Positions 597 through 28,089 of a stretch of DNA of 32,000 nt are shown piece by piece. The position numbers were made by a program, and so were the translations under genes. The stretch covers positions 2,130,001-2,162,000 of the forward strand of contig NZ_LT934425.1 of the NCBI RefSeq assembly GCF_900232105.1, written 5' to 3'. The stretch's first letter is position 1. Each line of letters starts with the position of its first letter. Origin of the DNA: Candidatus Kuenenia stuttgartensis. Lineage in GTDB: Bacteria; Planctomycetota; Brocadiia; Brocadiales; Brocadiaceae. The notes under the pieces were generated by a model. That model ran no database searches. It was not told the origin of the DNA and worked only from the letters and a program-made list of their open reading frames with translations.

Positions 597-1551
597 ATGG
601 AGGTGTTCAATCCACACGACAAATTTTTCAAAGAGACATTTTCCATACGGGAGAATGCAATCGATTTTCTTCGCGGGACGTTTCCCCCGGAAATTTTAAA
701 AAAGCTGGATTTATCCACTTTAACACAGGATAATAACTCATATATCGACGAGGAACTCAAAGAACATTTTTCAGACATTGTATACACCTGTTTCTGTAAA
801 GACAAAGAACTCCGGATAACCCTTTTATTCGAGCATAAGAGTTATGCCGTAGCATGTCCATATCTACAGTTGATGAAATACCTTTTAAAGATATGGGAAT
901 CGAACAGCAAACAGGCGCAAAGGCTCATACCGGTAATTCCGGTGATATTGTATCATGGCAAAGAGACGTGGAACGTCAGGCGATTCAGAGACTATTTTGA
1001 AGGGATAGACGAGGTATTCTTTAGATTTATACCGGAGTTTGAATATCTGCTGACTGATCTGAGTTTCTACAGTAACGAGGAAATAAAGGACAAGGTATTT
1101 AGAAGGGCATCCCTTCAAATAACCATGTTATTAATGAGGAACATATATAATGACAAAATTCTGGGAGATAAGCTAAAGGTATTCTTTGAAATAGGGAAGC
1201 AGTATTTTGAAGAGGGTGAAGGATTAAAGTTTCTGGAAAGTGTAATCAGGTATTTGTACTATGCGTCGGATATATCGGAAGAACGGGTAATAGATACCCT
1301 GAAAGAGGTATCAGAGGAAGGAGGTAAATTGAGTATGACAATAGCGGCTCGATTAATAGAGAAAGGCAAGTTGGCTGGTATAGAGGAAGGCAGAAAGGAA
1401 GGCAAAGAGGAAGGCAGGATAGAAGGCAGAGCGGAAGGTGCGATAGAGGGCGAGAGGAAGGGAAGGTTAAAAGGTAGGATAGAGGGCATAATGGAGGGCT
1501 GGAAAGATGGCGAGTGGAAGGGTGAAAGGAAAGGTCGGATAAAAGGTCTAA
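597..1551 (+). pseudogene. Rpn-family (YhgA-like, PD-(D/E)XK / Transposase_31) recombination-promoting nuclease, copy 1, 5' portion, split by an IS at 1552
   Basis: N-terminus MEVFNPHDKFFKETF, an LLFEHKSY core and an EG-rich tail are typical of the family. It is colinear and highly similar to the intact copy 25844..26872. The ORF reads on into IS sequence and stops at 1586. Confidence 0.8.
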
Positions 1552-1587
1552 GGCACTGTCCAAAAATAATTTGGTATTTTTATTAAT

Positions 1588-2526
1588 TTAGTTAAGTGAA
1601 ATTGTATAATTCCAATCTGGCAAGACACTGTGTTTGTTTATGTTTATTTCTTTCATTTGGTCATCAGTGATTTTGATTCCTTTTTGGTATTCTTTCTCGT
1701 TAAGAATGGCTTGTACGAGAAGACCCGCTCTTGTTGTAGTGCCAGCAATTAAACTTAGCATAACATCATAAGACCTCAAAGGATTCCCTTCCCAATTTTT
1801 ACTGATAAAACTAAACAGACGATGTTCTACCGGATTCCATTTTGATGCTCCTGAGGGATAGTGGCAAATCCTGATGGAGAGTCCGTAAACTTTACAAATA
1901 TTTTGATAAAGCGCATATTTCCACAACCGGGGACGAAATCCGTTGCTCCCTCCTGCGTCACAAAGAATAAGGAGTTCTTTTGCGCATGGATACCTCTTCC
2001 AACCAAATTCATCCAGCCAAATCTTAATTGACTCGACTGCAAATTCCGGTGTGTCATAGGACGTACCAACAATAACTGTCCCTAGATTAGTCAGCAATTC
2101 ATAGATACCAAACGGACATCCAACACCAATTGCCTGTGAACGAAAATCATGGGCCAAAACTTCATTTACTATTTTTGTCCACGCCTTGCCCTCATTTCTG
2201 AAATTACCTATCAATTCCTTTTTCTTACTGTCAACACTGATTATTGGCTGACCAGAATCTTCAAAATACTTTTTTGTCTCATTAATAATTTCAAACTGTC
2301 TATTACGGTTCGGATGGCGTGTCTCTGCTATCGTTTTGCGATTTACTCTCAGAGAATAATCCATGTCCTTAAGAAGCTTACTAACTGTTGTTGCACATAC
2401 GCTTACACCTCTATCACCGCATTCTTTTTTTAGAGTACGTGTGCTTCTTCTCGTCCATATTTTTCCTTTACCCATTGGGTCTCCTGCAGTATCGCCCTCC
2501 ATCAATTCTTCAAGAAGTTTTACCAC
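1588..2526 (-). CDS. ISAzo13-family transposase, DDE catalytic part / orfB (GTG start in the track; more likely expressed by a -1 shift from orfA)
   Basis: HYPSGASKWNPVEHRLFSFISKNWEGNPL matches the characteristic ISAzo13 / Rhodopirellula-type DDE C-terminal motif (PxxxSKWNxIEHRLFSxISxNW). Confidence 0.8.
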   Translation of the reverse strand: MVKLLEELMEGDTAGDPMGKGKIWTRRSTRTLKKECGDRGVSVCATTVSKLLKDMDYSLRVNRKTIAETRHPNRNRQFEIINETKKYFEDSGQPIISVDSKKKELIGNFRNEGKAWTKIVNEVLAHDFRSQAIGVGCPFGIYELLTNLGTVIVGTSYDTPEFAVESIKIWLDEFGWKRYPCAKELLILCDAGGSNGFRPRLWKYALYQNICKVYGLSIRICHYPSGASKWNPVEHRLFSFISKNWEGNPLRSYDVMLSLIAGTTTRAGLLVQAILNEKEYQKGIKITDDQMKEININKHSVLPDWNYTISLN

Positions 2527-3359
2527 ATCAGTTTTTTTTTAATCGAAGAACGACCTGCACCAACCTTACGTATCCGTCCCGGTGTAATGTTCTTACTCGA
2601 AAGTTCCCGACGCCCCTTGGCAATTGTTTTTACATTTATGCCGGTTAGCAGTGAAAGTCTTAAATCGCCGCCATATCCCAGTTTCATTGATTCTAAACCA
2701 AGATAAAGCCGTTTCTGCCTTTCATCAAGTATAGAAAGAAATGTCTGCAGGCAATCCGTAACCGCCTCACTCCCAAAGCCGGGAATTAATACATTTTCTT
2801 CCTTACAAGCACACAACATGATTGATTGTTTACGTCTGGCGAGTTGATCCGCGCCTAACACCTTGGAGATATACAAATATTCTCCGGCAATCTGCTCACG
2901 CAAGACTCTTCCAGATACCACTAATTGAGTCAGTGCATTAAAGACTCGCACATGTACCAGCGTTTGAAGCTCCGAGGCAAAACAACCTTCCAGAGATTTA
3001 TTAATGATGGCCTCGAGAGTATATACAAGACTTCCTTGTTGAGAAAAATATATTTGATTGAAACTCCAAATGCCATATTTATTATAGCTTGCAAGTTTAT
3101 CCAGTGTATGGTATTTGCCTGCATGGGAATAACTCGCACGATGTCCGAGCGATTTTAGCTTCCTGAAAACCGTTGCTTTTGAAGTCGTTCCCAAAGCTTC
3201 TTTGATACTGTCCAGAGTTAAAACGACATCTCTGTGGAATAGTCCCAAAAGCTTGTGATGAGAATACTTAGCTAAACGCATAATGACACTATTAGGATTA
3301 ATGCGCCGGATAAAATACCGCTTAATCCTAATGCTATCACAATGGCCGGAGGGTGTCAA
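2520..3359 (-). CDS. ISAzo13-family transposase, N-terminal (HTH-like) part / orfA; an alternative start at 3278 (MRLAKY) is possible
   Basis: ORF lies inside the IS and ends IKKKLMW* immediately after an A9 run (T9 on the + strand, 2532..2540). It is contiguous with the DDE ORF in the -1 frame. Confidence 0.65.
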   Translation of the reverse strand: MTPSGHCDSIRIKRYFIRRINPNSVIMRLAKYSHHKLLGLFHRDVVLTLDSIKEALGTTSKATVFRKLKSLGHRASYSHAGKYHTLDKLASYNKYGIWSFNQIYFSQQGSLVYTLEAIINKSLEGCFASELQTLVHVRVFNALTQLVVSGRVLREQIAGEYLYISKVLGADQLARRKQSIMLCACKEENVLIPGFGSEAVTDCLQTFLSILDERQKRLYLGLESMKLGYGGDLRLSLLTGINVKTIAKGRRELSSKNITPGRIRKVGAGRSSIKKKLMW

Positions 3360-3465
3360 TGCCTATATTTACCAGTTGTAACGGCTATTACCGTGACATA
3401 CACAAAGACACTACAACGATACTATTGGCACTATACAATACCATGTTATTTGTGGTCGCTCCCTA

Positions 3466-3624
3466 AAGGAAGCAATAGAGATTGGTTTGGAGCTAAAGTA
3501 TGGCGTTGAAGGTTTAAAGCTTCTGGAACGTATCGGAAAAATAGTGGTGATAGAGAAGCTGGTGGCAATAAAAGAAGCGGTGAAAATAGCAAAGAATGTG
3601 GAAGAAATTGAAAAACTGCTCTAA
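3466..3624 (+). pseudogene. Displaced 3' end of Rpn copy 1
   Basis: Translates KEAIEIGLELKYGVEGLKLLERIGKIVVIEKLVAIKEAVKIAKNVEEIEKLL*, colinear with the last ~52 aa of copy 2 (IEAIEIGLELKYGVNGLRLLERIRK...EEIEKLL*). Confidence 0.85.
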
Positions 3625-25637: not shown

Positions 25638-25843
25638 TTGATGAACGAAACATTTGCCGGTTTGAGGAATATCCCGCCAGCATCCTTGCCGGCGGGAGGT
25701 CAGGCGCAGGGATGCTCCTGATACTATGCACACAACTATGCCGTGTTATGGCAATGTTTTGCCCCTTACATTAATGCGGCATATCGTTATTGTCGGAATT
25801 TTTCAAAAAGTTAAAGTGTTGCAATATTACAGAAAGATCATCA

Positions 25844-26872
25844 ATGGAAATAATCAATCCACACGACAAATTCTTCAAAGAGACATTTTCCATCCGGGAA
25901 AATGTAATCGATTTCCTTAGTGGTACATTTCCCTCAAAAATCCTGAAAAAACTGGATTTGTCCACTTTAACACAGGATAATAACTCATATATCGACGAAG
26001 AACACAAAGAACATTTCTCAGACATTGTATACACCTGTTTCTGTAAAGACAAAGAACTCCGGATAACCCTTTTATTCGAGCACAAGAGTTATGCCGTAGC
26101 ATGTCCGTATCTGCAGTTGATGAAATACCTTTTAAAGATATGGGAATCAAACAACAAGCAGGCGCAAAGACTCATGCCGGTAATTCCGGTGATATTATAT
26201 CACGGCAAAGATACGTGGAAAGCAAGAAGGTTCAGAGACTATTTTGAAGGGATAGACGAGGAATTTTTAAGATTTATACCGGAATTTGAATATCTGCTGA
26301 CAGACCTGAGTAGTTACAGCAATGAGGAAATAAAGGACAGGGTATTTAGAAGGGCATCCCTCCAAATAACCATGTTATTGATGAGGAACATATATAATGA
26401 CAAAATTCTGGGAGACAAGCTAAAGGTATTCTTTGAAATAGGGAGGCAGTATTTTGAAGAGGAAGGAGGGGTAAAATTTCTGGAAAGTGTAATCAGGTAT
26501 TTGTACTATGCATCGGATATAGAGGAAGAACGGGTAATAGACACCTTAAAAGAGATATCAGAGGAAGGAGGTAAATTAAGTATGACAATAGCGGCGAGAT
26601 TAATAGAAAAGGGTAAAATAACCGGTAGGATGGAAGGTCGGATGGAAGGCAGGGAGGAAGGCAGAGCGGAAGGTGCGATAGAGGGCGAGAGGAAGGGAAG
26701 GATAGAGGGTCTAATAGAGGCGATAGAGATAGGTTTGGAGCTAAAGTATGGAGTTAACGGTTTAAGGCTTCTGGAGCGTATCAGGAAAATAGCCGTGATA
26801 GAGAAGCTGGAGTCAATAAAAGAGGCGGTAAAGATATCAAAGAATATGGAGGAAATTGAAAAATTGCTCTAA
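25844..26872 (+). CDS. Rpn-family (YhgA-like, PD-(D/E)XK / Transposase_31) recombination-promoting nuclease, copy 2, intact
   Basis: The start at 25844 (MEIINPHDKFFKETF) was chosen by colinearity with copy 1. LLFEHKSY core, EG-repeat tail and a helical C-terminus. Confidence 0.85.
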   Translation: MEIINPHDKFFKETFSIRENVIDFLSGTFPSKILKKLDLSTLTQDNNSYIDEEHKEHFSDIVYTCFCKDKELRITLLFEHKSYAVACPYLQLMKYLLKIWESNNKQAQRLMPVIPVILYHGKDTWKARRFRDYFEGIDEEFLRFIPEFEYLLTDLSSYSNEEIKDRVFRRASLQITMLLMRNIYNDKILGDKLKVFFEIGRQYFEEEGGVKFLESVIRYLYYASDIEEERVIDTLKEISEEGGKLSMTIAARLIEKGKITGRMEGRMEGREEGRAEGAIEGERKGRIEGLIEAIEIGLELKYGVNGLRLLERIRKIAVIEKLESIKEAVKISKNMEEIEKLL

Positions 26873-27430: not shown

Positions 27431-27748
27431 ATGAGTACTGATATTAAAGAAAAACTTGAAATACCTGATACGCTAAGAAATATTTATACGGAGATGGAAG
27501 TTTCTCCAATAGGGCTTTTAAAGAACTATGCTTTAAACCTTATTTTAAATAAAATTAATAAATATGAAGCAGAAAACGCATTCTTTGAGAAAAAGTATGA
27601 TTGCAAATACGAAGAATTCAAACATAAAGTCGAATCTATGGAAAAAGAAGAGAATTTTGAATGGGAAGACGATTTGATGGATTGGGAATTTGCGTTTGAA
27701 AATTTTAGATATTGGCAAAAAAAAGCCCATGAGATAAAAGGCGAATGA
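27431..27748 (+). CDS. Small acidic helical protein, putative partner of the downstream DUF6516-like gene
   Basis: aggagg lies 8 nt upstream of the ATG. The stop overlaps the next start (ATGA). No family recognised. Confidence 0.55.
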   Translation: MSTDIKEKLEIPDTLRNIYTEMEVSPIGLLKNYALNLILNKINKYEAENAFFEKKYDCKYEEFKHKVESMEKEENFEWEDDLMDWEFAFENFRYWQKKAHEIKGE

Positions 27749-28089
27749 AGGAAATACTCGACAAATATAAAGATATTATTAAAAAATATGAAATCCTTGT
27801 TTGGGACAGCGAACCACTGGCGTATCGTTTTAAGGCAATAATTACGTTTATGGATGATTCAAGACTTCTGATAAAGGATTATACCTTTCCCCACGGACGC
27901 AAATACTCTTTTCACTGGCAAGACAGAAATAGTCATTTAATAATTCGCTGGGACAATGCAATGCACTGGAAAGACATAGATACTTTTCCACATCACAAAC
28001 ATGAAAAGGCCTCCATATCTTCCTCAAAAGAAGTAACGCTGGAAGATATTTTGAACCATATTTATGAGATTTTGAATGATGGACACTGA
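27745..28089 (+). CDS. DUF6516-like (TumE-family-like) toxin-antitoxin component
   Basis: YSFHWQDRNSHLIIRWDNAMHW...TFPHHKHEKASISSS...LEDILNHI fits the DUF6516 pattern (RyDNapH...PHHkH). Confidence 0.55.
   Translation: MKEILDKYKDIIKKYEILVWDSEPLAYRFKAIITFMDDSRLLIKDYTFPHGRKYSFHWQDRNSHLIIRWDNAMHWKDIDTFPHHKHEKASISSSKEVTLEDILNHIYEILNDGH

Follow-up and report, generated by a model that had tools for sequence, protein, structure and literature searches.

The rpn gene referred to here as copy 2, one of two paralogs in a 32,000-nt stretch of the Candidatus Kuenenia stuttgartensis genome (the whole of this stretch is called the window below), is very probably a gene within a gene of the Rpn nuclease family, in which a long RpnL-type toxin and an internally started RpnS-type antitoxin would be made from a single reading frame. 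A first-pass annotation of the window had proposed this toxin/intragenic-antitoxin arrangement, and the proposal gains support from the homology of the internal start to a proven one, from the conservation of its Shine-Dalgarno (SD) sequence and ATG, and from the repeats and tail of the predicted short protein, which are hallmarks of RpnS. The comparisons described below indicate that this SD and ATG together form a site of internal translation initiation that has been conserved and that corresponds by homology to the proven one in Escherichia coli RpnA. The internal-start design was already shown in E. coli in 2023, and the Kuenenia gene is a well-supported further example of it, not a new mechanism.

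In the systems described by Zhong et al. (2023; PMC10400941), the toxic nuclease RpnL is blocked by RpnS, and toxin/antitoxin behavior was found throughout: for RpnA, RpnB and RpnP2 in growth inhibition, and for RpnC in an SOS assay. The first-pass annotation had described the E. coli Rpn proteins as toxic antiphage nucleases with an internally translated antagonist, RpnS, and this background is accurate by the same source. Zhong et al. (2023; PMC10400941) also describe a C. difficile rpn gene with an internal ribosome-binding site and start that made a small protein in E. coli, and mutation abolished the product. The Kuenenia gene is likewise a non-enterobacterial rpn gene, with a predicted internal ribosome-binding site and start, although from a different phylum.

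The full-length gene and its nuclease domain

Copy 2 is a plus-strand open reading frame (25844..26872) that begins with the ATG at 25844 and ends with the stop codon at 26870-26872, and it encodes a full-length, RpnL-type protein of 342 residues. Residues 5-189 (25856..26410, + strand) match the YhgA-like PD-(D/E)XK nuclease domain (COG5464/PF04754, named Transposase_31 in Pfam; E 4.8e-42 for the Pfam match), a region modeled by AF2 with pLDDT values above 90. The nuclease residues D60, E79 and K81 are intact in copy 2 and invariant across 71 homologs, and in a BLASTP alignment they correspond to D63, E82 and Q84 of E. coli RpnA. The same comparison gives an E value of 7e-17 between the copy 2 product and RpnA, with an overall identity of 24%. 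Matches of the product to the NCBIfam RpnA and Rpn-family models are weak and lie under the curated cut-offs. A PADLOC search returned no model matching copy 2, and searches of PDB sequences, with the full protein and with a profile of the short forms, gave only spurious low-complexity matches.

All homologs that we aligned share the N-terminal sequence MEIxNPHDKFF. A TTG codon at 25790, upstream of the ATG, was considered as an alternative start of the long form and rejected, because every homolog begins at MEIxNPHD. The long-form start at 25844 has almost no SD, with a calculated anti-SD duplex of only -1.2 kcal/mol.

The internal SD and start codon

The strongest anti-SD duplex in the gene (-13.7 kcal/mol) is instead found far inside the reading frame, at 26565..26572 (+ strand; AAGGAGGT, core GGAGG at 26567-26571), where it is encoded by residues E241-G242-G243. 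It is followed by an in-frame ATG (M247; 26582..26584, + strand), the predicted RpnS start, which lies 738 nt downstream of the long-form start and 10 nt beyond the GGAGG. From this codon, a predicted RpnS-type short open reading frame of 96 amino acids plus a stop codon runs to the end of the gene (26582..26872, + strand). The first-pass annotation had reported the GGAGG, the ATG at 26582, their spacing and approximately the last 96 residues as the resulting product; the coordinates are confirmed by the sequence and the product by translation. A 96-residue protein identical to this product is present as a called protein in a public collection. When the RNA flanking the internal start was compared with 200 shuffled sequences, 194 of these were more structured (z +1.6).

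The 3' end of the Kuenenia 16S rRNA reads GGATCACCTCCTTTCT and carries a canonical anti-SD, and SD motifs are found before the first ATG in 30% of long open reading frames, as compared to 8.9% for internal ATGs. In this genome, GGAGG occurs at positions -17 to -5 of 134 of the 20,616 internal in-frame ATGs (0.65%), so that the combination of GGAGG and ATG in any one gene could be due to chance. It is the comparison across phyla, described below, that places the observation far beyond chance.

A second strong SD-like run, GGAGGGG, occurs upstream at 26465-26471 (E-G-G, residues 207-209) and is specific to copy 2; the other four paralogs read GGTGAAGGA or GATGAAGGG at this place. We ruled it out as a start signal because it has no start codon at SD spacing and is not shared by the other paralogs.

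A simple scan for promoters of the sigma-70 type, and of that type only, found none inside copy 2 on the plus strand. By this measure no internal promoter is evident, and the gene may or may not give a short transcript like those of E. coli, whose rpn genes have internal transcription start sites. A literature search found no Kuenenia study of transcription start site mapping, ribosome profiling or N-terminal proteomics.

Homology to the proven RpnA start

For comparison with the Kuenenia gene, the E. coli rpnA sequence was fetched and translated. BLASTP pairs M247 of copy 2 (MTIAARLIEKG) with M244 of RpnA (MTIAERLRQEG), and the two proteins have the common head MTIA-RL---G. At the DNA level, the internal start of rpnA consists of AAGGAG, 6 nt and ATG. 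Since M247 and M244 are aligned, the Kuenenia ATG is the positional homolog of an experimentally proven internal start: in RpnA, changes at K240, E241 and M244 abolish the short product, RpnAS (Zhong et al. 2023; PMC10400941).

Conservation of the start across phyla

Eighty related loci were fetched from reference genomes, and 75 of these were analyzed by a script that identified the codon aligned with M247, calculated the anti-SD duplex energy of the preceding 17 nt, and ranked this energy against every other in-frame position of the gene. The 42 loci from outside the Bacteroidota belong to Brocadiales, Spirochaetota, Desulfobacterota, Acidobacteriota, Campylobacterota and unclassified bacteria. 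Conservation in orthologs had been put forward in the first-pass annotation as a check on the internal Met and SD, and in these lineages both prove to be conserved. All 42 loci have a start, which is an ATG at the aligned codon in 39, and an ATG or GTG one codon upstream in the other three. In 41 of the 42, no other in-frame position of the gene gives a stronger anti-SD match than the site before the start; in the remaining one, this site ranks at 0.018. At the protein level, M247 and G243 are nearly invariant among the 71 homologs, down to 37% identity, with the Met located two residues upstream of the M247 position in one clade.

The residues that encode the SD differ by lineage. They are Gly-Gly (GGAGG) in most loci, Lys-Glu-Val in L026 (AAGGAGGT), Arg-Gly-Glu in L023 and L032, and Ala-Gly-Gly in L039. 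Of the 31 distinct loci with a Gly-Gly SD, 26 (84%) use GGA for the first Gly; elsewhere in these genes, GGA accounts for 28.5% of the Gly codons (binomial p 2e-10, a value that is overstated because the test counts related sequences). The comparison thus indicates that the internal SD is selected at the level of bases, and not at that of residues.

The Bacteroidota loci are different in that both signals are mostly lost. A strong SD is kept in only three of the 33, and in 19 of the 33 the position holds a codon other than ATG, in most cases GTT or ATT. Initiation in the Bacteroidota largely proceeds without an SD. Because the SD and the ATG are both lost in this phylum while the protein is kept, the two signals appear to serve initiation and not protein structure.

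Two groups of Bacteroidota homologs have features of their own. In a clade of metagenome-assembled genomes, mostly Bacteroidales (L027, L034, L040, L041, L049-L051, L054, L057, L060, L070, L074 and L081), the Met is replaced by Val or Ile (GTT, ATT or GTA), and the GGAGG is weakened or lost as well; in these genes the short product may either have been lost or be started elsewhere. The Spirosoma homologs (L067, L071, L072, L078 and L080) have a repeat unit of about 15-17 residues, and not four, which includes the whole head motif (MTVAEELIREGEKRA...), so that their tails form a ladder of up to six in-frame Met-headed copies with no SD.

Structure of the short form

The predicted short form has three parts, namely the head MTIAARLIEKG, seven four-residue units, and a helical tail. 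The repeat array (26627..26710, + strand) reads RMEG, RMEG, REEG, RAEG, AIEG, ERKG, RIEG and has a DNA period of 12 nt (TRF detects period 12 at 26624-26673). The repeats, whose pattern is x-x-E-G, begin near residue 16 of the short form, approximately 15 residues after the Met; in the published RpnS proteins they begin 8-20 residues after the Met, and their number varies among strains (Zhong et al. 2023; PMC10400941). Repeat number is also variable in Kuenenia: the length differences among the five paralogs of this genome and the alleles in other Kuenenia assemblies are all multiples of four residues, and L004 and P0009, which are 98% identical, differ by exactly one repeat unit.

The C-terminal module (26696..26869, + strand) was assigned by hhalign and AF2 as a helical, divergent DUF4351-like tail. 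In hhalign, a profile built from the Kuenenia-type tail aligns with the DUF4351-type tails of homologs at a probability of 84% (E 7.4e-6 over 55 columns), and it shows no relation to the RpnA-type tails, which are PF27070-like. A Pfam search with the short form itself (P0002) gave no match to DUF4351 (PF14261); two more distant members of alignment A3 do match this family. Sub-threshold matches of the short form to Yae1_N (Pfam), which is driven by the repeats, and to FliH (NCBIfam), which covers the repeat region alone, were rejected as compositional.

The AF2 model of the short form is all-helical, with pLDDT values of about 90 for residues 32-96 and below 50 in the head and repeats (residues 1-31 are poorly modeled). 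A long helix occupies residues 27-56 of this model and residues 240-271 of the full-length model (mean pLDDT 85), and the internal Met is therefore located near the start of the helix. RpnAS is a dimeric three-helix bundle (Zhong et al. 2023; PMC10400941; PDB 7TH0). A Foldseek comparison of the short-form model with PDB structures found nothing better than E = 6, and no match to 7TH0, which was present in the library.

Copy 2 can be compared feature by feature with E. coli RpnA-E and the plasmid-encoded RpnP2. It has in common with these the YhgA-like PD-(D/E)XK nuclease, an in-frame internal SD/ATG at the homologous position, the MTIA-RL---G head, four-residue repeats that start 8-20 residues downstream of the Met and differ in number between close relatives, and a helical C-terminal module. 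It differs from RpnA in the tail that follows the repeats, which is DUF4351-like and not PF27070-like, and from RpnAS in the length of the short form (96 versus 49 residues).

Paralogs and genomic setting

The genome that we searched for further copies is a single contig of 4.41 Mb, and it contains five near-full rpn copies with 87-90% identity to copy 2: copy 2 itself (L001), L002, L003, L004 and copy 1, which is interrupted by an insertion sequence. The sequence GAAGGAGGTA and the ATG are kept in all five paralogs, and adjacent synonymous sites differ. This conservation says little by itself because the copies are so similar; likewise, the two paralogs in the window are 90% identical and add little against chance.

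Copy 1 starts with the ATG at 597, and its 5' part extends to the insertion (597..1553, + strand). Its GGAGG is at 1320-1324 and its internal ATG at 1335-1337, again 738 nt into the gene, the same layout as in copy 2 and in agreement with the first-pass annotation. The reading frame is broken after ...GRIKGL (at about 1553) by an ISAzo13-family insertion sequence with approximate boundaries 1554..3457 (- strand), which contains an open reading frame at 1588-2526 (- strand) that matches PF07592 (DDE_Tnp_ISAZ013; E 5.8e-108). The displaced 3' end of copy 1 follows at about 3458..3624 (+ strand), as judged by junctions read in the sequence, and exactly 52 residues are encoded beyond the junction. 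The insertion thus removes the last 52 codons from both products, just as had been proposed.

L003 (G000:C1:1459469-1460458, - strand, outside the window) has a TAG at codon 2 (ATG TAG GTT...) in a frame of 330 codons that is otherwise intact. It keeps the internal SD and ATG, and the next Met in this frame comes downstream of the catalytic D, E and K. Since only codon 2 is nonsense and the rest of the frame is intact, L003 may at present be a source of the short, antitoxin-type product alone. The gene is intact in close alleles elsewhere (P0010).

Runs of a 7-nt unit (CTCTGAC or TTCTGAC) lie directly upstream of L002 (G000:C1, about 2478560-2478650), and similar runs are found at L099:1150-1245, upstream of a standalone short gene in another Kuenenia assembly; these may be a shared repeat associated with rpn modules.

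Copy 2 is located in an accessory module, with a decayed 5' fragment of a glycosyltransferase gene on one side and a TumE-like toxin pair on the other, after which an intact glycosyltransferase gene comes next. The pair (window positions 27431-28089, downstream of copy 2) consists of two genes coupled by ATGA, the second of which is a TumE-family toxin gene (PF20126; E 8.5e-23). The rpn family is patchy in the order, with a match in eight of 59 sampled genomes, this genome included.

Nuclease-less relatives

In another genome of the order, the loci L094:499-729 and L095:346-624 have lost the nuclease part and kept the SD, the ATG and a complete head-repeat-tail reading frame. The two differ in repeat number, and the frame is open for only 28 and 15 codons, respectively, upstream of the ATG. 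A Kuenenia metagenome-assembled genome contains a nuclease-less gene of 82 residues (L099:1274-1522) that starts from a shifted Met behind AGGAGG. L097:1362-2219 is a split version, in which a TGA that overlaps the SD divides the gene, such that a 207-residue nuclease cistron ends 15 nt before a 72-residue cistron; the latter begins at the same ATG as the predicted RpnS start. No standalone copy of the short form was found in the present genome.

L094, L095, L099 and the split L097 match the standalone genes, rpnSs, of Zhong et al. (2023; PMC10400941), whose products were annotated as DUF4351. The Kuenenia-type tail is related to tails of the DUF4351 type (PF14261), the family to which standalone RpnS-type genes such as E. 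coli ypaA are assigned, and in L094, L095 and L099 the same head, repeats and tail follow the same SD and ATG, whereas the module in the window is embedded inside a nuclease reading frame.

Proposed mechanism and alternative explanations

In the arrangement that we consider very probable, ribosomes that start at the nearly SD-less ATG at 25844 would make the 342-residue nuclease of the RpnL type, while those that bind the strong SD at 26565-26572 would start at the ATG at 26582 and make the last 96 residues only, the RpnS type. The short protein would consist of the conserved head MTIAxxLxxxG, the variable four-residue repeats on a long helix, and the helical DUF4351-like tail. By analogy with RpnA, RpnB, RpnC and RpnP2, the short form would use the helix that bears its repeats to pair with the same stretch of the long form, would block toxic DNA cleavage, and would thus act as the intragenic antitoxin of a probable antiphage nuclease; the number of repeats would decide which short form fits which long form. 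For Kuenenia, we infer that the short form is translated, that the long form is toxic and is neutralized by it, and that the gene has a role in phage defense. Several observations count against the scheme: the 10-nt spacing between GGAGG and ATG is longer than in most genes, though still within the normal range; the sigma-70 scan detected no site inside the gene; the short form has no direct Pfam match to DUF4351; its model is poor for residues 1-31 and has no significant Foldseek match; and PADLOC offers no matching model.

The alternatives differ in how much of this scheme they retain. It is highly improbable that no internal initiation occurs, and that E-G-G-x-x-x-M is merely a protein motif at a domain boundary with the GGAGG as a by-product of its Gly-Gly codons. 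The near invariance of residues G243 and M247 would fit such a motif, as would the presence of GGAGG before an internal ATG 134 times in the genome, but a motif does not explain why 84% of loci have GGA as the first Gly codon when the background is 28.5%, nor why the SD survives changes of residue (KEV in L026, RGE in L023 and L032, AGG in L039), with the start shifting by one or two codons alongside it. Moreover, the two signals decay in the Bacteroidota where the protein is kept, the same SD and ATG head standalone genes, and the homologous site in RpnA is proven. We find it equally hard to credit that the SD-like site acts within the long message only, either as a pause site for folding or as the relic of an old fusion that joined a nuclease gene to a small DUF4351 gene. 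The site does lie where the nuclease part gives way to the long helix, and two-gene and split versions exist; a pause, however, needs no in-frame start at SD spacing, yet 42 of 42 loci from SD-using lineages have one, and selection on synonymous sites over four or more phyla would be unexpected for a relic.

A different kind of alternative accepts that the short protein is made internally and questions only that it is an antitoxin. It might assist the nuclease as a stoichiometric partner or positive cofactor, in the way that Cas11d serves Cas10d, or else be a sensor or specificity factor. The comparative data back separate translation and are silent on the sign of the effect, and the tail here is DUF4351-like, unlike the RpnA-type tail that was studied for structure and inhibition; in addition, Zhong et al. 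(2023; PMC10400941) cite Cas10d/Cas11d as a case in which the two products of an internal-start pair complement each other in function. On the other hand, each Rpn pair tested in that study was a toxin and an antitoxin, though with different tails, and the genes that encode only the short form, together with the paralog knocked out at codon 2, are what would be expected of an antitoxin that persists alone. We regard a role other than that of an antitoxin as quite unlikely.

The antitoxin reading can also be extended, more doubtfully, from single genes to the genome as a whole. The five Kuenenia paralogs would then be mutually insulated toxin/antitoxin pairs, coded by repeat number and sequence, and would form a within-genome network in place of independent defense genes. 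How much short form is made per long form would be fixed by the difference between the nearly absent SD of the long start (-1.2 kcal/mol) and the nearly perfect SD of the short start (-13.7 kcal/mol). Damaged copies, such as L003, the insertion-truncated copy 1 and the nuclease-less genes of relatives, would be antitoxin-only or mismatched modules, and could shape cross-protection or addiction between copies.

Significance

These rpn genes are at present annotated as "putative transposase", and the 96-residue product is missed. With their analysis, the RpnL/RpnS gene-within-gene design comes to include an anammox planctomycete and the DUF4351-like type of tail. The comparison across phyla amounts to a clean natural experiment, with nucleotide-level selection where SD initiation is used and decay in most Bacteroidota, and it supports the suggestion of Zhong et al. 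(2023; PMC10400941) that co-expression of long and short forms is broadly conserved. For Kuenenia itself, the result is a set of five loci for predicted toxic nucleases that are in different states (intact, with a nonsense codon 2, or interrupted by an insertion sequence), and these may bear on phage defense and genome instability in an industrially important bacterium.
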